64,000 bases of DNA, from IMG/VR virus record IMGVR_UViG_3300009164_000039. The stretch is one strand, 5' to 3'. The stretch comes from a virus. This document shows, one piece after another, positions 2 to 52,430 of this stretch (position 1 is its first letter; the number at the start of each line of letters is the position of its first letter). Both the position numbers and the translations under genes were made by a program. Under the pieces are notes generated by a model. That model saw only the letters and a list, made by a program, of their open reading frames with translations. It did no database searches and had not been told where the DNA came from.

Positions 2-1633
2 CTCACACAAGTTGCAGCCACTAATAATGTAACAGCCGCTCAATGGAACGGTCTCATACTGGCAACAAACAAAGCATTATATCACACAGGTGGTGCAAAC
101 GTTGCAGTGACTGGTGTGTCGGTTGGCACACCAATTGCCTATTACAGTGCTGTATCTACTGCGGTAACCACAGTGTGGAACAATGCCAACACTGGTTCGG
201 TAGGATTCACCACAGACGATGCGGCCTTGACATCAACCAACACCGTTACCTGGGCCAACAGCATTGGGTTCGTATACACTGTGGATTTTGGCAGTGCCGA
301 CGAAATGCGGTATTTTTTCAATGCTGGCGGGAAAATAAAATTCAGCCTCACTGGGCCTGCAGGCACAGGACGCAATCTAGATTGGCGAACACTTTGTACT
401 GCAATGGGTACCATAGTATTTGGATACAACACCACTACCAAATCTGGTGGGTCAGGTACTCCAGATACTCTACTAAGCACAGTAGGCAACGGTGGCTTCT
501 GGGGACCTCATACATCAGGAGTGGACCGAGAAGATTTCCAACAGACTTCCACAGGCACTGCATACACAACCAATTACATTGAAATTCTTACTAAAGTGTC
601 TGGTGTCACTGCTGGCAGCAGTGGCGGTAAAGGTACTAGATTGACTTTTACTATTAATCTGGTAGATGCTAATAGCAACATCTATCAACCTGCGGTGGCA
701 ACAGGCACAGTGGCCAGCATGGTGGTTGTTAGACCAACATCAAGTGCAGTGAGTGTGACAGGCCCCAGTGGCACTGGCGTGACCAAGACCACAGACGCCG
801 GTACTACCACAGCGTATGCGATTCCAACCGGAAGCCAAACGTTTACCACAGTCGGGGATACCACTTTTACTGTACCTGCCGATGTAACATCAGTTAGTGC
901 TTTTGTTGTTGCGCCTGGAGGATTTGCAGGTGCCACCGCAGGTGGTGGCGGTGGCGGCTCAGCTTACATAGGAACGGTCACAGTGACTCCGGGCCAAACT
1001 CTCTATGTCAGAGTAGGAGATAAAAATGCATCAGGTGCCAGCACTGCGTCGTTGTCTATAGTGTCAACTACTACACCAATTGACAGTTCACTTAATTATC
1101 TAGTTGCAACTGCTGGTGCAAGCACCGGCACCGGTAATGGTGGCTCTGGCGCAGGTGTTGGTGCGTTTGCCGCAGGTGTTGGTGCAAATGCTGGGCAAGG
1201 TGGGCAGAATCCTCTTGGTGGAGGAGGTGGCGCAGCGGGCTATGGTGGCACTGCTGGTAATGGTGGCTATCCATATGTAAGCGGAAACCAACAACTGCAA
1301 GGCGCTTATATCTATGGTGCTCAAGGTGGCGGCACCGGTGCTGGTGGTGGTGGCGGTGGTGTACTCTCTGCGTCAGCGGCTGGAGGTGGTGGTGGTGTGG
1401 GACTTAATGGAATTGGTACACCTGGTAGCAGTGGTGGCGGCACAAGTACACCGACCACTCAAACTGCTGGAACGCCCGGCGGCGGCGGATCTGGTGGTGC
1501 CAGTGGTAGTGTTAAAAATGGTGGAGACTTTGGTGGTGGTGGCGGCGGAACGGCTATCAGCGGCACACCTGGTGGCGGCGCCGTTAGAATAATCTGGGGG
1601 CCAAGCCGAAGTTACCCGAGCCAGGCAGCATAA
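2..1633 (+). CDS. Virion structural / tail-fibre-like protein with C-terminal glycine-rich domain (5'-truncated by window edge)
   Basis: Frame is open from position 2 (LTQVAATNNVTAAQWNG...) into ORF 107..1633; Thr/Ser/Gly-rich; RYFFNAGG segment and long GGGGG/GAGG tracts typical of phage virion fibre proteins. Confidence 0.7.
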   Translation, partial: LTQVAATNNVTAAQWNGLILATNKALYHTGGANVAVTGVSVGTPIAYYSAVSTAVTTVWNNANTGSVGFTTDDAALTSTNTVTWANSIGFVYTVDFGSADEMRYFFNAGGKIKFSLTGPAGTGRNLDWRTLCTAMGTIVFGYNTTTKSGGSGTPDTLLSTVGNGGFWGPHTSGVDREDFQQTSTGTAYTTNYIEILTKVSGVTAGSSGGKGTRLTFTINLVDANSNIYQPAVATGTVASMVVVRPTSSAVSVTGPSGTGVTKTTDAGTTTAYAIPTGSQTFTTVGDTTFTVPADVTSVSAFVVAPGGFAGATAGGGGGGSAYIGTVTVTPGQTLYVRVGDKNASGASTASLSIVSTTTPIDSSLNYLVATAGASTGTGNGGSGAGVGAFAAGVGANAGQGGQNPLGGGGGAAGYGGTAGNGGYPYVSGNQQLQGAYIYGAQGGGTGAGGGGGGVLSASAAGGGGGVGLNGIGTPGSSGGGTSTPTTQTAGTPGGGGSGGASGSVKNGGDFGGGGGGTAISGTPGGGAVRIIWGPSRSYPSQAA

Positions 1634-38231: not shown

Positions 38232-38615
38232 TCAAGAGATTTCACTGCGACCATTACCTAGATCTTTTCGATTCACGCCACGTGGGTTCATGGCTTCGTA
38301 TTGTTCCCACGTTTCCAAAGCTACGTTTTTGCACACATCCTGGAACCAACGGTCGATAATCTGTTCATCATCTCGGCCAGCATAACCAGACTTGATCAGT
38401 TGCGCAATAAAGAACTCGTTCCAGTCCAGTTCAAATGCACCTTGACCAATGTTGTCTGCATCCAGTTCAATGCCCACAATGTTCACATAAGGTTTGCCTG
38501 CTTTGGTAGCTATCTCTTTTGGTGACAGTGTTTTCTTCACAGGTGCTTTTTTAGCCGCTGTTTTTTTTGCCGGAGCTGGTTCGGCTTCAACTGGTTTTGG
38601 TTTTTTAGTTGCCAT
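38232..38615 (-). CDS. Hypothetical protein
   Basis: TAATG overlap with queE; Lys/Pro-rich N-terminus; GAFELDWN. Confidence 0.7.
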   Translation of the reverse strand: MATKKPKPVEAEPAPAKKTAAKKAPVKKTLSPKEIATKAGKPYVNIVGIELDADNIGQGAFELDWNEFFIAQLIKSGYAGRDDEQIIDRWFQDVCKNVALETWEQYEAMNPRGVNRKDLGNGRSEIS

Positions 38616-39487
38616 TATTTTCCCCATCCATTGCCCCACAAGTCCACATGTAGACGAGGGCTGTAGTAGTAACCACGTTTCATTGCTTCGTCTGCCACAT
38701 GCACACGATTGGCATTGTATCCATTGGTAGTGCCGCCCACAGGCATCACATACACAGGACCCATGAATCCATTGCGTCGATATTCGTCAACTGCCTGGTC
38801 TACTTCTTCAAAGTCCACCAGCTTCTCAACCACAAACTTGAGATAGGTTACGCCGTATTCTTGATAGCCACACACAACATCAGGCTTGATGGCTTCTTCC
38901 CATGCTTCGCCACTTACACTTAGTTTGGGACTAACACTGAATTGCAGTTCACGGAACTGTCCCAGGTGATCTTCACGGAACTCACGATGCCATGCATCAA
39001 TGCCTTCTCGAAAATCATCTGCTAGATCTTGGGTGCCATTGGTTTCAAATGTCACAAAGTTAAGATCCAGCATACGCTGATCTTGCAACAGTTCTGTGTA
39101 TGCACGTTGCCACCCTAACAATGGTTCACCACCTGTGATGACCAAGTGTACGTCATTGCCATTGCCCTGCCGCCAGTTACCATTGGGACACAACTGTAAT
39201 ACTCTGTCAATAACAGCAGGTATCTCCAACATGGGGCTCAGGTCCTTGAACGCTGGATCCCAACTGGCATAGCTGTCACAACCTGTGTGTACCAGCGGCA
39301 GTTCTTCAAATGTCTTGTACTTGGTGGCATCTACCAAAGCACGTTCTGTGCTGAGTTCACCTGGCTTCATGCCAAAGCCTTCGCATTTGAAGTTGCATCC
39401 GAACGTGCGCAGGAACACACTGGGTACTCCTACATAGCGGCCTTCGCCTTGTGCTGAATAAAAAATTTCGCTAACTTTAAGTTTCAT
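38615..39487 (-). CDS. queE: 7-carboxy-7-deazaguanine synthase (radical SAM)
   Basis: SEIFYSAQGEG..G.PSVFLRTFGCNFKC..GCDS, ITGGEPL, ETNGT, SVSPKL, PRLHVDLW. Confidence 0.9.
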   Translation of the reverse strand: MKLKVSEIFYSAQGEGRYVGVPSVFLRTFGCNFKCEGFGMKPGELSTERALVDATKYKTFEELPLVHTGCDSYASWDPAFKDLSPMLEIPAVIDRVLQLCPNGNWRQGNGNDVHLVITGGEPLLGWQRAYTELLQDQRMLDLNFVTFETNGTQDLADDFREGIDAWHREFREDHLGQFRELQFSVSPKLSVSGEAWEEAIKPDVVCGYQEYGVTYLKFVVEKLVDFEEVDQAVDEYRRNGFMGPVYVMPVGGTTNGYNANRVHVADEAMKRGYYYSPRLHVDLWGNGWGK

Positions 39488-41047: not shown

Positions 41048-41593
41048 TTAACCTTCATAGATTGCAGAATTGCCTGCGTGTTCAAAGCATTCCACACTCA
41101 ACAATTTAACGCGAGCGTGTTCATCACCCAGCAAGTTTTTGTACTTGTTGGTAGGGTCATCATTGAGCCAATCGTTTGTCCAAGCATACACAAATTCTGC
41201 AAACTTTTCACAACCCACAGCAGGCAGTGTGATTAGATTGATAACACCTTTGTTGCCTACAGGATGTGCTTGAACTTCTTCTGGCTTGCCGTTTAGTTCA
41301 GCATCTGCACTCCAACCTGACATGGCTTGAAACTGCTCAAGCATGGGATCATCTTGTGCCACAACCATGGTGTGATCAAATGTTTTTTCCAGGAATGCTT
41401 TGAGCTCGGCCAGGCCGCCAAAGTCTTGTACCCAGTTGCGCTCGTCCAGTTCTTCTGCTTCAAACACAAACTTGAAACCCAAACTGTATCCATGTAGCAA
41501 ACTGCAATGACTGTGCGTGGCACGCCATTGTCTAAAAGTGCAACTCAGTCCACGATCGTTACCATAAGTTTTGGTACTAAAGCGTCTTGCCAT
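41048..41593 (-). CDS. queD: 6-carboxytetrahydropterin synthase / PTPS family, paralog A
   Basis: RQWRATHSHCSLLHGY, WVQDFGGL, FDHT, CEKFA. Confidence 0.85.
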   Translation of the reverse strand: MARRFSTKTYGNDRGLSCTFRQWRATHSHCSLLHGYSLGFKFVFEAEELDERNWVQDFGGLAELKAFLEKTFDHTMVVAQDDPMLEQFQAMSGWSADAELNGKPEEVQAHPVGNKGVINLITLPAVGCEKFAEFVYAWTNDWLNDDPTNKYKNLLGDEHARVKLLSVECFEHAGNSAIYEG

Positions 41594-41614: not shown

Positions 41615-41785
41615 TTACCAATGATGAATTACGCCAGCCACAATAAAGCAGTTGGTCAGTACATAGCATAACACAATTACTGTACGAATGCAAGCAATTC
41701 GGTCTGCTTCAGCATCCGAATCGCCTGTTTTTTCGCCCAAACTTTTTGCCCAAAGGCGCCAAATTTTACGCAAATAGATCTTCAT
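41615..41785 (-). CDS. Small membrane protein
   Basis: WRLWAKSLGEK..DRIACIRTVIVLCYVLTNCFIVAGVIHHW. Confidence 0.6.
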   Translation of the reverse strand: MKIYLRKIWRLWAKSLGEKTGDSDAEADRIACIRTVIVLCYVLTNCFIVAGVIHHW

Positions 41786-42272
41786 TCCATTCACGATGGC
41801 CTTCACGGAACGCCATGTTTGATTGGGTTTCACGTACTTCCACACGATAGCACCACAGTCGCTTGGCTTCACCTTCACCCCACATTTCGGGAATGTACAC
41901 ACCATTCACATACTTGTACAGCATGTCGCTTAGGCCTTCGCAACCTAGTCGTGGTAACACCACAACCTTGGCCATGTTGCGCTCTTGCAACAGTTTGTAT
42001 ATTTCCATTTCTGGATCATCTTGTGCCACGATCAAGGTATGGTCAAATTGGTCTTCAAGGATCTTCTTGAGTTCTTTGAGTCCGCCGTAGTCTGCGGCCC
42101 AGTTGCGCACGTCTAGGTCATTGGTTCCAAAATAGAACTTCATTGAGAATGAGTAACCATGTATTAGATTACAATGACTATCACTCCTCCATTGACGGTA
42201 GGCGCATGGAAATGCGTCGTGATACTCTTTGGTACTTTGGTATTTGTATACCACTGGTTGTAGTGCTGACAT
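41766..42272 (-). CDS. queD: 6-carboxytetrahydropterin synthase / PTPS family, paralog B
   Basis: RQWRSDSHCNLIHGY, WAADYGGL, FDHT, GCEGL. Confidence 0.88.
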   Translation of the reverse strand: MSALQPVVYKYQSTKEYHDAFPCAYRQWRSDSHCNLIHGYSFSMKFYFGTNDLDVRNWAADYGGLKELKKILEDQFDHTLIVAQDDPEMEIYKLLQERNMAKVVVLPRLGCEGLSDMLYKYVNGVYIPEMWGEGEAKRLWCYRVEVRETQSNMAFREGHREWNEDLFA

Positions 42273-42281
42273 GCTGTTTCT

Positions 42282-42341
42282 CCTATGTTGTTTAGCATAG
42301 GCTGGCAGAGTTTGATATAGCGGGATGAAGCCAAGGCCGCT
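42282..42341 (-). ncRNA. Candidate cis-regulatory RNA (H-type pseudoknot plus SD-occluding hairpin) in queD 5' UTR
   Basis: AGCGG/CCGCU stem, 13-nt loop containing UGGC pairing with downstream GCCA, A-rich linker; CCUAUG/CAUAGG hairpin covers AGG of AGGAG. Confidence 0.55.
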
Positions 42342-42347
42342 TACAAC

Positions 42348-42353
42348 TATTTA
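42348..42353 (-). promoter_or_regulatory. Putative late promoter TAAATA
   Basis: Immediately 5' of the structured queD leader. Confidence 0.5.
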
Positions 42354-42842
42354 TTTTTGGCTAGGTCCGCCGGTGTCGTCTGATCCTGTCGGCTCATATA
42401 ATTGTATCTTCTTTTTCAAGTCTTCTGCATTGGCCACACGCTGGCGAAGTTCACTAGAACTAAAACTGTGATCACGACCGTTAAAGTATAGATCAATGTT
42501 TCGCTTGTGACAAATCTCACGACCAGTAAACTCTTTACCTTCGTACTCTACCCCCAGGATACGCATGTCAATTGGCAGGATAAGAAGCAAGTCTTCAAGA
42601 TCTTTTTCTGTGTTGTAGACCCATACTTCGTCCACGTACTTGCAACCTACCAGTTGTAGTTGACGTTCCACTACACTTTGTACCGGACGATTCTTGTTAG
42701 GGCGATCCAAGGTTGGGTCGTTTTGTAGAGCACAAATCAGGTACTCGCATTGTTCTTTTGACTCGCGAAGCATGGCAATGTGCCCTGCATGTAGCAAGTC
42801 AAATGTTGAGGCTGTGAAGCCTACTCGTTTTCCATTCATCAT
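42351..42842 (-). CDS. Cytidylyltransferase, TagD (glycerol-3-phosphate CTase)-like
   Basis: TFDLLHAGH (HxGH), VERQLQL..CKYVDEV, RDHSFSSS. Confidence 0.85.
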   Translation of the reverse strand: MMNGKRVGFTASTFDLLHAGHIAMLRESKEQCEYLICALQNDPTLDRPNKNRPVQSVVERQLQLVGCKYVDEVWVYNTEKDLEDLLLILPIDMRILGVEYEGKEFTGREICHKRNIDLYFNGRDHSFSSSELRQRVANAEDLKKKIQLYEPTGSDDTGGPSQK

Positions 42843-43224: not shown

Positions 43225-43800
43225 TTATTTCTCCCACCAGCACTCCCACGGAAACACCACCCACGATGGTTCCTCTAGTTTGTTAATAGTTAGTCCTACG
43301 TAATCCACGTTCTTAAATTCACTGGCCTCATTGTTTACGACAGTGGCAAAGCGAACAGTGTTGTGCCAGATATCTGCCCAGTCTGGATCATTGGGCAAGC
43401 AACCACTTGGCCAGTCTTCCTTGATCCAGTTCAGTGTGCGACCTGAATCGTTGATGTCATCCACAATCAAGATCTTCTTGCGTAGTGCAGGTTCAGTTGT
43501 TACCCGATCAGGGTCACGAGCCACAGGAAGCTCAGTGCCTTCGTAGGGAACATAACCATACGCATCTTCTGCCATCCACAAGTTACTTTCAGGGCCAGAT
43601 TCAGCGTCACGGAAACTGATGTGTAGGGTGTACATGGGCACGTCAAGATACTGACTGATCATCACAGCAGGAACCAATCCTCCACGTGTGATGCCTACCA
43701 CATAGTCAGGCCGCCAATCACCCAGCTCACGAATGATATTTCGCACATGCTTTCGTATGTGTTTGTTGTTTAATTCAATAAGTTTGTTCTTCGTAATCAT
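43225..43800 (-). CDS. Purine phosphoribosyltransferase (Gpt/Hpt-like)
   Basis: VVGITRGGLVPA, ILIVDDINDSGRT PRPP loop, VVFPWE. Confidence 0.88.
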   Translation of the reverse strand: MITKNKLIELNNKHIRKHVRNIIRELGDWRPDYVVGITRGGLVPAVMISQYLDVPMYTLHISFRDAESGPESNLWMAEDAYGYVPYEGTELPVARDPDRVTTEPALRKKILIVDDINDSGRTLNWIKEDWPSGCLPNDPDWADIWHNTVRFATVVNNEASEFKNVDYVGLTINKLEEPSWVVFPWECWWEK

Positions 43801-45112: not shown

Positions 45113-45349
45113 TTACCACTCCGTTGCTGAATTGTCGTCTAGATATTTGTCTACCATGGCATTTGCTTCTGCAAGATTGATAGCGTGTACAGTGACAGTC
45201 ATCACTTGATGATTCATTTTGATATCGTAAGGTTGTCTACCGTTGAATAAAAAATTCTCCGGAACACTGCGCACGATGTCAAACTTTTGTAGACTTCGTG
45301 CGCGGCTGATCAAGTTGTTGGCAAGGTCAACCGAGTTCATATTACGCAC
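45113..45349 (-). CDS. Hypothetical protein
   Basis: ORF in operon. Confidence 0.55.
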   Translation of the reverse strand: MRNMNSVDLANNLISRARSLQKFDIVRSVPENFLFNGRQPYDIKMNHQVMTVTVHAINLAEANAMVDKYLDDNSATEW

Positions 45350-46034
45350 GTTTGCAGGTGTTCACGATATTCATGAACTCGTTACGCACACTAGGATCGT
45401 TCTTGAACACGCCGCCTAGTTTACTTGTAACAGTGCTTGAGCCCACATCTTCCACACCGCGACTTTTCACACAGTAGTGTTGAGCATCAACTACCACAGC
45501 CACGTTGTCTGTTTCTAGAATAAAGCTCAAGGCATGAAACACCTGCTCGGTAAGACGTTCTTGAATCTGCGGACGTTTTGCAAAGTATTCAACGATTCTG
45601 TTGATCTTGCTTAGTCCTAGAACCTTTTGCTTGGGAATGTATGCCACAGTTGCCACACCGTCAATCACAACAAAGTGATGTTCACAGTTGCTCTGTACAT
45701 TGACGTTGCGTTCCACAACCATTTCGTCGTACTTCATCTTGTTGTCTACAGTTGTGCATTTGGGAAATGCTTCAACATCTAGGCCCCAAAAGATTTCATT
45801 TACATACATCTTGGCCACACGCTTGGGTGTGTCAATTAGACTGTCGTCTGACAAGTCCAAGCCCAAGATTTTCATGATAGCATCAAATGCTAGTTCAATC
45901 TTTTCAATTTTTTCTTTGCGATCACACAATGATTCCACAGAGCCCACACCAGGTGTTTCCACACCCTTGCTCAATAGATGTTCGTGTACTGCACGACCCA
46001 GAATTGGATCAGTTTTTGTTTTATTATAACTCAT
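45342..46034 (-). CDS. folE: GTP cyclohydrolase I
   Basis: TPKRVAK, SNCEHHF, GLSKINR, RPQIQERLT, HYCVKSRG. Confidence 0.97.
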   Translation of the reverse strand: MSYNKTKTDPILGRAVHEHLLSKGVETPGVGSVESLCDRKEKIEKIELAFDAIMKILGLDLSDDSLIDTPKRVAKMYVNEIFWGLDVEAFPKCTTVDNKMKYDEMVVERNVNVQSNCEHHFVVIDGVATVAYIPKQKVLGLSKINRIVEYFAKRPQIQERLTEQVFHALSFILETDNVAVVVDAQHYCVKSRGVEDVGSSTVTSKLGGVFKNDPSVRNEFMNIVNTCKRA

Positions 46035-49695: not shown

Positions 49696-50136
49696 TTAGA
49701 CAGGGTGATAAAAGGTTGATTCGGGGGTGCGGGGATCGCGATAAGTGATAGCACAGCCATTCTCGCCGTCTTCGCTTACTTCGATAATAACATGTCTACC
49801 TGGGTAGCGCAAGTTAATTTGAATATACAAGTCATCTGCAATCATCTCGCATGACTTGTAGTCTAGTGCAAGAGTACCTTTGGCATAAAGGCTTTCGCAC
49901 CAGCGTTTGAAAAGAATAAATTCAATATCGCGATCATTGTGGAACACAGATATTGCTACTCTAAAATGGAAAATGTGTCTATGTGGATGACCAAGGAATG
50001 CAACGTCTGCTAGCAATGGGTCAGTAAGTGCCGCAGGATACTTGTGGATACCTTCTTTTTGCCAAGTGACCCAAACCAGTCGTTCAGCTACTTCTCGGTT
50101 GATATCTGTTTGTGTTCTGTCAATTTGAGTTGTCAT
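49696..50136 (-). CDS. dpdL: QueD-like T-fold protein, probable DpdL (predicted CDG decarboxylase)
   Basis: LGHPHRHIF fits the LxxxHRHxF signature recalled for DpdL; KEGIH, DRDIEFI, SCEMIA, VSEDGENG; lacks the QueD Cys. Confidence 0.65.
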   Translation of the reverse strand: MTTQIDRTQTDINREVAERLVWVTWQKEGIHKYPAALTDPLLADVAFLGHPHRHIFHFRVAISVFHNDRDIEFILFKRWCESLYAKGTLALDYKSCEMIADDLYIQINLRYPGRHVIIEVSEDGENGCAITYRDPRTPESTFYHPV

Positions 50137-50840: not shown

Positions 50841-52430
50841 TTATTCAAATAAGTTGGTGTCTAGTACTACTACCGGTTTTTCTTTTTTCTCTTTGGGAGC
50901 ATCAGGAGTTGCAACAATTTCAAGATGCTTGTTTGCCTGGCTGTGTGCGTTCATGGTCTTCTCGCCTTTGAATCCACGTGTGCCAACAATTTGATTCCAG
51001 TAGCCAGTTTTACCTGCGTACTTGGGATCTTCAATTATGGCCATTGCACTAGCACGATCTGGCGCGGCAAAGATACGTTCCACAATGTCTTCAAAAAACT
51101 CATAGTCACCACCATCATGTCGCATCATGGCAGGATGTGCGCCAGAGTCAAACTCACGATTGGCACGTTGTACTGCTTCGATGTGCATCCAAACATTATG
51201 ACCCATGAGCAGTGCATATGAGAAACTATCCCACGATGTCTTGCCTTCTTTGCCAATCTTGTTTAGGTCACCAGGCTTGTACACACAGATGTCTTTGATC
51301 TGTAGATGCTTGCTTACAGGACTTTCATCAAAGTGGTCCCAGTAGCCGTCCTGCATGGTAACATCTCTGTAGCTTCGCGTGTCCAGGGAATACTTCTTGT
51401 CGTCTGCACTGGGACTCATACGATAGCACCACTTGTCATCATGTGGCAAGTCAATGTGATGATACACTTGTCCGTTTGCTGTGGCCAAGAAAGGACTTGC
51501 ACAGTCAAAGCTGATGGTAAAGTTGGGATTCACGTGCTTGCGAACAGCACGTTGAATAACAGTCAGCAACACTGCCCACTCTAGTTTGCTTGTGCCCAAG
51601 AAGTGCATCCAGTCGTGAATGCCTGGTTGCAACAAGTTATCGTAACGCAACGCCACCAATCTAGTCAGCACCAGTTGCACGTCACACATGTTTTGTCCAC
51701 CCATCGACCACCCATCAAAGTGTGTGTCTGGATACTTCACAGGATCACAATAATCTTTCATGATCTGATACCAAGCTTCTGCACTCTCATGATTGTCACC
51801 TTGCAACACGTTCAAGATCTTGGTGCCACCATTCTTAACACCCTTGCGGTGTTTCATGAAGTATTCGTTGTTGTACTTGGTAGCCGCAACTGCTTCAGGT
51901 AGTGTGGTAATTTGACAGGCACGGCTGGCTTTTTTGTCATGGATAACCCAGGTTGGGATATCTAGTGTCATAGAGTAGTCTGCAATACCGTCCAACCATT
52001 TGAGAATAGATTCACGCTTCTTCTGTGCTTTAGGGCATCCTGAATTGGCTTTCCAGTCGCCTTCCCACAAGCCCTTGGCAATCTGGAATCCACCAGAGTC
52101 ACCCAGCATGAACGTACCCGGCTCACGGTTACGAACCATGTCTTCCGACCAGTCTTGTTTGGTCAAGTCCAAGTTGGCATGCCCACCTGAATACAAACTC
52201 CACTTGTACGGAAACATACTTTGGGCACTGTTGAGCCAATTCATCTGCTCCATGTCTGGTATGCCTGCGGGCATACGTGCAGGTTCCACATACGGACCTT
52301 TTACTGGATCACGTTGTTTGCCTATGTAAGTGGCATAGAACCCTGAGATGGCTGGCAAAAACACAGCATAGTCTTTTTGCTTGGCTGTGAGATTGTCTTG
52401 CTCAAGGTCCACTTTGGACTCCTGTGTCAT
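50841..52430 (-). CDS. dpdA: TGT-family transglycosylase, probable DpdA (inserts 7-deazaguanine base into DNA)
   Basis: MLGDSGGFQ, MTLDIP, LNVLQG, GWSMGG, MHFLG, ISFDCASP; no evident Zn-binding tetrad; context with folE/queD/queE. Confidence 0.75.
   Translation of the reverse strand: MTQESKVDLEQDNLTAKQKDYAVFLPAISGFYATYIGKQRDPVKGPYVEPARMPAGIPDMEQMNWLNSAQSMFPYKWSLYSGGHANLDLTKQDWSEDMVRNREPGTFMLGDSGGFQIAKGLWEGDWKANSGCPKAQKKRESILKWLDGIADYSMTLDIPTWVIHDKKASRACQITTLPEAVAATKYNNEYFMKHRKGVKNGGTKILNVLQGDNHESAEAWYQIMKDYCDPVKYPDTHFDGWSMGGQNMCDVQLVLTRLVALRYDNLLQPGIHDWMHFLGTSKLEWAVLLTVIQRAVRKHVNPNFTISFDCASPFLATANGQVYHHIDLPHDDKWCYRMSPSADDKKYSLDTRSYRDVTMQDGYWDHFDESPVSKHLQIKDICVYKPGDLNKIGKEGKTSWDSFSYALLMGHNVWMHIEAVQRANREFDSGAHPAMMRHDGGDYEFFEDIVERIFAAPDRASAMAIIEDPKYAGKTGYWNQIVGTRGFKGEKTMNAHSQANKHLEIVATPDAPKEKKEKPVVVLDTNLFE

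Follow-up and report, generated by a model that had tools for sequence, protein, structure and literature searches.

A recurrent pseudoknot leader of QueD-like genes in uncultured phages: very probably a riboswitch-like translation switch, new and confined to phages, for 7-deazaguanine genes

The gene block and the leader of the QueD-like gene

The window, that is, the whole stretch of 64,000 nucleotides of viral DNA analysed here, carries the following genes on its minus strand.

38615-39487 (-): QueE-like radical SAM protein
41048-41593 (-): second PTPS-family gene, with the CxxxHGY motif
41766-42272 (-): PTPS/QueD-like gene of 168 aa, motif CNLIHGY, Pfam PF01242 (E = 5e-14); the gene downstream of the leader and regulated by it in our reading
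45342-46034 (-): FolE
49696-50136 (-): ORF of 146 aa with LGHPHRHIF, which contains the DpdL signature LxxxHRHxF
50841-52430 (-): ORF of 529 aa with the TGT-like motif GDSGGFQ (DpdA-like by this motif; no Pfam TGT match)

Both PTPS genes of the window have CxxxHGY instead of the canonical QueD motif CxxxHGH. LxxxHRHxF is the signature of DpdL, a proposed CDG decarboxylase (PMC10516641). Taken together, the FolE, QueD-like, QueE-like, DpdL-motif and DSGGFQ genes suggest a 7-deazaguanine (dDG-type) DNA modification system. QueC was found neither among the scanned ORFs of the window nor in a 383-kb relative rated 100% complete. Most likely, the phage makes 7-deazaguanine DNA and is itself unable to make preQ0 or preQ1, because QueC was not found; an earlier note on this DNA had also supposed that preQ1 is not made. 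A gene for a xanthine/guanine-type phosphoribosyltransferase (43225-43800, minus strand) lies in the same gene block as the QueD-like gene. The enzyme could salvage guanine freed by base exchange or ribosylate a deazapurine base, and it bears on the question of which metabolite a switch at this locus might sense.

The QueD-like gene is preceded by an H-type pseudoknot (42300-42341, minus strand), whose first helix, P1, begins 6 nt past a TAAATA box. The elements of the leader are listed in the 5' to 3' direction of the RNA.

42348-42353 (-): TAAATA box, T4-late-promoter-like, ending 6 nt 5' of P1
42337-42341 (-): P1 5' strand AGCGG, partner of 42319-42323
42333-42336 (-): L1, CCUU, with invariant second and third positions (C, U)
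42329-42332 (-): P2b 5' strand GGCU, partner of AGCC at 42300-42303
42326-42328 (-): invariant U (facing an invariant C), then P2a 5' strand CA, as tabulated for the family
42324-42325 (-): L2, UC, whose invariant C abuts the P1 3' strand and is a candidate ligand-pairing base
42319-42323 (-): P1 3' strand CCGCU, partner of 42337-42341
42308-42318 (-): L3, the A-rich linker AUAUCAAACUC, one base longer than the family consensus WUAYAAAYUC
42305-42307 (-): P2a 3' strand UG, then an invariant C, from the family alignment
42300-42304 (-): bulged C (42304), then P2b 3' strand AGCC (42303-42300), in the register of the family
42282-42301 (-): RBS-hiding hairpin, predicted fold: CCUAUG (42301-42296), 8-nt loop, CAUAGG (42287-42282)
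42280-42284 (-): Shine-Dalgarno (SD) sequence AGGAG, its AGG part covered by the hairpin
42272-42270 (-): start codon AUG of the QueD-like gene

The TAAATA box shares bases with the stop codon of an upstream cytidylyltransferase-like ORF (42351-42842, minus strand). The two strands of P1 are separated by a 13-nt loop, CCUUGGCUUCAUC (42336-42324, minus strand), and the stretch between CCGCU and the CAGCC tail reads AUAUCAAACUCUGC. In the window, P2 consists of the pairs G42332-C42300, G42331-C42301, C42330-G42302, U42329-A42303, C42327-G42306 and A42326-U42307. C42301 and C42300 are members of both the P2b 3' strand and the RBS-hiding hairpin, which is predicted by a single-sequence fold as well as by the RNAalifold consensus of 40 leaders of the same class (class I, see below). 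Taken alone, the leader of the window does not fold above chance (MFE of -16.3 against a shuffled mean of -16.4 kcal/mol, z = 0.04). Most of what the earlier note had read from this leader is borne out: the 5-bp P1 AGCGG/CCGCU, the 13-nt loop, the A-rich linker, the hairpin CCUAUG/CAUAGG over the SD, the start just after the TAAATA box and the position upstream of queD.

Conservation, covariation and distribution of the pseudoknot

At least 595 relatives of the QueD-like protein are present in IMG/VR. We took the best 80 of them (87-95% identical) together with their flanks for a comparison of the leaders; their upstream regions have the same element, with clear compensatory changes. A covariance model built from 52 distinct copies found exactly one copy in the window (57 bits) and likewise a single copy per locus in 177 related viral loci with upstream DNA (42-71 bits). 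In total, we collected 198 loci with 138 distinct versions of the element, all from uncultured phage sequences.

P1 is paired in 99.6-99.7% of cases across the family, and three of its five pairs show changes on both sides (AU/UA, GC/CG and CG/AU/UA); when the partner strand was slid by 1-3 columns as a control, pairing was 37-61%. The conserved P2 joins the loop bases directly 5' of an invariant UCAUC to the bases directly 3' of an invariant CUGC. It is composed of GGCU (42332-42329):AGCC (42303-42300) and CA (42327-42326):UG (42307-42306), and is 79-81% paired in the model-made alignments, where four of its pairs have both-side changes. As an assessment blind to pairing, we anchored an alignment solely on the two invariant words UCAUC and CUGC. 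In this alignment, P2 pairs 1-4 were 81.5% paired, as compared with 50% ± 2.5% when the tails were shuffled among the sequences, and none of 2000 shuffles scored as high. The innermost pair of P2 occurs as all four Watson-Crick types. Considered jointly, P1 and P2 were 88-89% paired, versus 29-50% in controls slid by 1-3 columns. An alignment-free test for the longest P2 helix was uninformative: owing to recurring GGCA/UGCC-like words, its mean of 4.6 bp was close to the 4.4 bp obtained with mismatched loop/tail pairs. Position-anchored counts were used instead. The covariation of P1 and P2 over the 138 versions is what the earlier note had wanted to see across phage queD leaders. The P2 that it proposed, UGGC (42333-42330):GCCA (42306-42303), is pairable in the window but is not the conserved helix, being paired in 46% of cases across the family.

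P2 has a total length of 6-9 bp, made up of CA:UG, then a U facing a C, and then 4-7 more pairs. The C:G pair of P2a occurs in all 138 versions, and the A:U pair occurs in 135, being replaced in the remaining 3 by a compensatory G:C (UCGUC together with CUCCGC). The U opposite C inside P2 was found in 52 of the 52 versions tabulated. The register varies in some subgroups. In that of the window (tail CAGCC), the family register of P2 requires the bulged C, and an alternative, UUGGC:GCCAG, is also possible; this alternative does not overlap with the hairpin, and in one locus (L020) it pairs better than the family register. Subgroups with the tails AAGCC and AGGCC have a mismatch inside P2. G·U pairs are frequent in P2 and are present in the RBS-hiding helix too; therefore, the strand that folds as RNA is the strand of the gene.

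The unpaired parts of the element are conserved as well. Invariant unpaired bases in the alignment (A1) are C7 and U8 of L1, the C of L2, and A, A, A, U and C of L3, which has the consensus WUAYAAAYUC with three invariant A's. L1 begins with NCU in 138 of 138 distinct versions, a count to be read with the fact that the collecting scan itself demanded CT at these two positions. The C of L2 next to the P1 3' strand is likewise present in 138 of 138 distinct versions. A search of the IMG/VR viral sequences with a pattern having A, G or U at this position gave 2 matches, both of them chance matches of about 10 bits, while the same pattern with C gave at least 120. These results, taken together, make it nearly certain that the leader is a real, strongly constrained cis-regulatory RNA.

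The element was also found by a scan that ignored the genes. The 23-nt core pattern occurs in at least 120 viral contigs, and all 80 of those tested were full covariance-model matches (42-70 bits). Among 185,579 prokaryotic species, represented by one genome each, the core pattern matched 16 times, with about 17 matches expected by chance; the only genuine one lies on a contig of 5.9 kb that had been binned with a metagenome-assembled genome of Bacteroidetes. Searches of GenBank phages by megablast and blastn gave no homologue of the region or of the leader. In the cultured phages with the nearest QueD (ACP17, R5C, X1 and Me-ZS1), queD starts at most 30 nt from the upstream gene, so that there is no space for such a leader. 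In the window and the related loci, no extra copies were found 5' of other genes, save a degenerate one in a single locus, L107. That locus, the sole one with two copies among about 180, has a second copy of 30 bits (positions 8-58, plus strand; P1 ACCAG/CUGGU, tail CUUCGCC) 5' of a class I SAM methyltransferase-like ORF, directly upstream of the canonical copy (1002-1053) and the queD-like gene.

The first gene after the RNA belongs to the PTPS family in nearly all loci, and is often followed by QueE in the same operon. Four types of PTPS occur in this position, with mutual identities of 26-46%, and the upstream neighbours vary among FolE, HIT, phosphoribosyltransferase and cytidylyltransferase genes. 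Riboswitches typically show just this combination, an RNA that stays conserved while the gene family linked to it diverges. An exception to the PTPS rule is L144, where a 113-aa cupin-like ORF comes first after the RNA. In L153 and L190, an ORF of 243 or 293 aa is located between the RNA and the PTPS gene, and in L067 and L152 a canonical CxxLHGH QueD sits between the RNA and the window-type gene; the actual CPH4 synthase could therefore be either paralogue.

The earlier note had likened the leader to class I preQ1 aptamers. The likeness holds for the layout (a 5-bp P1, an A-rich L3 and a C 5' of the P1 3' strand) but not for recognition by the Rfam model of preQ1-I, RF00522, a search that the note itself had proposed: even at E ≤ 10, there was no RF00522 match to the element, either in window positions 42200-42420 (221 nt) or in 111 nt of a related locus (L025:2900-3010). 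The whole window gave no Rfam match at the gathering thresholds. RF00522 matches in five whole phage records were weak, and none fell on the element. At E ≤ 10, short stretches returned noise alone (UnaL2, microRNA families, emrB). In L221 (1501-1576; positions 193495-193570, plus strand, of contig G003), RF00522 gives a weak match with a score of 21 bits (E = 0.005 per record), short of the gathering threshold of 39 bits. It spans an SD and the initial codons of an ORF located 3' of a TAAATA box, contains GAGGUUC...ACCUCACUAAAAAACUAA, and is probably a chance match in A-rich coding sequence. We found no description of a riboswitch for phage queD, deazaguanine or pterin in the searchable literature, nor one of the element in Rfam 15. 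A catalogue that lists over 10,000 structured RNAs of viruses (PMC10690425) is silent on the element in its text; its tables may include it as an unnamed entry. We conclude that an element recurring in this manner with pair-preserving mutations very probably represents a new translation switch of 7-deazaguanine genes, riboswitch-like in kind and confined to phages.

Ribosome-site helices and the 5' end of the transcript

The pseudoknot is followed by one of several unrelated helices that hide the ribosome-binding site. Class I (88 distinct leaders, that of the window included) has CCUAUG/CAUAGG over the SD, class II (39 distinct leaders) has GYCRUC/GAUGGC over the start codon, and class III (24 distinct leaders) has GYCAUUG(UU)/(AA)CAAUGGC, also over the start codon; rarer platforms include CUCUAUU/AAUAGAG. 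In all three unrelated designs, the 5' arm of the RBS-hiding helix lies within the P2 3' strand or immediately 3' of it, usually starting 1-3 nt past CUGC (4 nt past it in the window). Across the three designs, the P2 3' strand shares 2 to about 4 nt with the anti-RBS arm; in the window, the overlap amounts to two G-C pairs. Thus, the pseudoknot and the RBS-hiding helix are mutually exclusive. Within each class, the RBS-hiding helix is conserved in sequence and has one-sided changes (G·U) alone, as the SD or coding sequence forms its 3' arm.

To model the consequence of this overlap, we blocked the P2 strand in ViennaRNA, which mimics an engaged pseudoknot. In class I, the SD was then unpaired with a probability of 0.75 instead of 0.24; for the AUG, the probability went up from 0.06 to 0.32 (class II) and from 0.00 to 0.45 (class III). 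No terminator was found in the leader. Transcription yields the pseudoknot before the RBS-hiding helix; a factor locking the pseudoknot should therefore leave the ribosome-binding site open, and we infer from the model an ON switch, opposite in direction to the known preQ1 riboswitches. An ON switch on a biosynthetic gene would be unusual, and any physiological logic proposed for it is speculative.

The spacing of promoter motifs places the element at the 5' end of the mRNA. A TAAATA lies 3-16 nt (mostly 5-11 nt) upstream of P1 in 71 of 157 distinct upstream regions. Another 42 of the 157 have a sigma-70-type -10 hexamer ending 6-11 nt (mode 7) before P1, within a near-consensus TTGACA-17 nt-TATAAT promoter. 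All three ATAAATA sites of the window are located at most 120 nt upstream of the start of a gene on the same strand. By these spacings, the mRNA of the QueD-like gene would begin at or beside P1, where the start is placed in most loci. The TAAATA box resembles a T4 late promoter and would fit a phage of the T4-related jumbo lineage; the DNA polymerase of this phage shares 42-51% identity with its counterparts in Phosso, Atu_ph07 and large E. coli phages (350-385 kb).

Most class I leaders (for instance, L003:2950-3003) have TGCTATAAT as the loop of the RBS hairpin, with TTTACA, a part of L3, exactly 17 nt upstream. By its sequence, TTTACA-17 nt-TGCTATAAT may be a near-consensus extended -10 sigma-70 promoter inside the class I switch; it would yield transcripts having neither the aptamer nor the anti-RBS arm, and part of the conservation in class I could therefore be that of a DNA promoter. 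The equivalent region of the window (42282-42320, minus strand), with TGCTAAACA at this place, is free of the embedded promoter and has no good -10.

A proposed mechanism, its rivals and known systems

Our best reading, to which we give a probability of roughly 55%, is that the leader is a phage-specific, riboswitch-like translational switch that binds a metabolite. The first 45 or so nucleotides of the mRNA would fold as an H-type pseudoknot aptamer with a 5-bp P1 and with invariant bases in L1, L2 and L3, and the P2 3' strand would double as the 5' arm of the helix that hides the SD (in the window) or, in other lineages, the start codon. A factor stabilising the pseudoknot would then open the ribosome site, allowing translation of the QueD-like and QueE genes. 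This factor is most likely a small planar metabolite, presenting a guanine-like face that would pair with the invariant C of L2; as far as an invariant base can tell, this C suggests a guanine-like or pterin-like ligand. Candidates are guanine, 7-deazaguanine, CDG, preQ0, preQ1 and a pterin (H2NTP or CPH4). Possible signals include free guanine, liberated in the exchange of G for 7-deazaguanine in DNA by DpdA, the pterin produced by FolE, 7-deazaguanine and CDG. The fullest form of this proposal, namely a previously undescribed riboswitch class confined to phages (freshwater T4-related jumbo phages), with a preQ1-I-like aptamer and an inverted, ON output, that senses a guanine-like metabolite, is tentative, and we put it at slightly below even odds. 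If it is true, the virus meters the synthesis of its own modified DNA base.

The main rival is a translational operator bound by a protein, either a phage enzyme of the pathway or a regulator in the style of RegA or gp32, with no metabolite involved. Invariant loop bases would suit recognition by a protein equally well as by a ligand; the motif is confined to phages, so that the binding factor could be phage-encoded; and the phage, by the polymerase identities of 42-51%, is of the T4-related jumbo lineage. T4-type phages use a 5' leader pseudoknot in the autoregulation of gp32 (Uzan and Miller, cited in PMC10690425). Against such an operator, which we regard as unlikely, the RNA is unchanged before four types of PTPS with 26-46% identity and among variable neighbours, no obvious co-varying protein partner was seen, and a compact, pocket-like core with an invariant C beside P1 is typical of purine-sensing aptamers (PMC10622847). 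The element might instead regulate independently of any ligand, by stabilising the mRNA like a 5' cap, by timing the folding or by sensing temperature, and so set translation at a fixed or temperature-dependent level. Its position at the extreme 5' end of the transcript would accord with this, as would the similar modelled stabilities of the competing structures and the partial opening of the ribosome-binding site in the model. However, at least 10 unpaired bases, including the U that faces C, are invariant over the 138 versions, which exceeds what a stabiliser hairpin needs, and we consider this explanation rather improbable.

More doubtful still is a true but divergent preQ1-I riboswitch, which would bind preQ1 or preQ0 and turn the gene OFF. 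The common features are the 5-bp P1, an A-rich L3 with AAACU and the C beside the P1 3' strand, and the downstream gene does belong to the queuosine/7-deazaguanine pathway; but the element escapes RF00522 at E ≤ 10, its P2 has 6-9 bp rather than 3-4, is devoid of the SD and competes with an SD- or AUG-hiding helix, and QueC was not found in these phages. It is very improbable that the conservation reflects DNA-level signals alone, such as promoter hexamers or an operator, with no RNA structure. The near-consensus sigma-70 promoter that can be read in the class I region (TTTACA-17 nt-TGCTATAAT) speaks for such signals, whereas the compensatory changes in P1 and P2 keep the pairing and not the sequence, the G·U pairs point to one strand, the same aptamer occurs in classes II and III without such a promoter, and the window copy is without a good -10.

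A tiny aptamer with about 200 natural variants, placed at the entry enzyme of phage DNA hypermodification (FolE-QueD-QueE-DpdL-DpdA, leading to 7-deazaguanine DNA), is of interest in several respects. To our knowledge, almost no riboswitch classes are confined to viruses, and the preQ1 riboswitches described so far are all OFF switches in bacteria. If the phage element is a metabolite-binding switch, as we favour, it provides a new pair of ligand and aptamer, a case of phages regulating anti-restriction chemistry through metabolite sensing, and a compact natural ON switch for engineering. The element also offers an experimental handle on an intermediate that accumulates in uncultured phages, as it can be synthesised and probed without the phage.

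Covarying helices, invariant unpaired bases, a location in the 5' UTR of related genes and a mutually exclusive platform, all of which are generic marks of riboswitches, are seen in this leader. By analogy, it appears to work somewhat like preQ1-I while lying outside the RF00522 family as defined. The preQ1-I family comprises types I-III, with examples in B. subtilis (queC), T. tengcongensis and E. coli; its P1 has 5-6 bp, and its P2, between the loop and the 3' tail, 3-4 bp. The preQ1-I aptamer has an A-rich L3 and, at the 3' end of L2 by the P1 3' strand, a specificity C that is 97% conserved (PMC10622847). The phage element resembles it in its H-type topology, its 5-bp P1 and its A-rich L3, which this layout would put in the minor groove of P1; in the conserved C directly 5' of the P1 3' strand, which by analogy may have an equal role; and in its link to a 7-deazaguanine pathway gene and its action at the translational level. 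It differs in that P2 has 6-9 bp and an invariant U·C mismatch, in contrast to the 3-4 bp of preQ1-I, in that L2 is only 2-3 nt long, and in having the extra invariant elements UCUGC and UCA. In preQ1-I, the P2 3' strand holds or abuts the SD, or a terminator follows, giving an OFF response, whereas the phage element has a separate RBS-hiding helix and a predicted ON response. Moreover, it occurs in phages only, and in phages without QueC.

In its output, the proposed mechanism has a parallel in the purine ON riboswitches such as the add adenine riboswitch of Vibrio vulnificus, in which folding of the aptamer, stabilised by the ligand, takes the 5' arm away from a helix that sequesters the RBS, and in purine riboswitches a single pocket pyrimidine sets the specificity for the Watson-Crick face of the purine. 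The add-type aptamer is, however, a three-way junction of about 70 nt, unlike the pseudoknot of about 45 nt seen here, which has no sequence relation to it and no Rfam match to the purine family. Among the phage-associated candidate RNAs in Rfam, manA, wcaG and the glnA/Gln riboswitch of cyanophages are cis-regulatory and lie 5' of auxiliary metabolic genes; they have other folds and gene sets, and none matched the phage element. The leader of T4 gene 32 is similar in being a 5'-terminal H-type pseudoknot of a T4-related phage that controls translation initiation. In gene 32, the pseudoknot serves as the nucleation site for gp32, which binds cooperatively, and no RBS helix competes with it; the phage element described here lies before the gene of a metabolic enzyme and has a two-state platform of its own.
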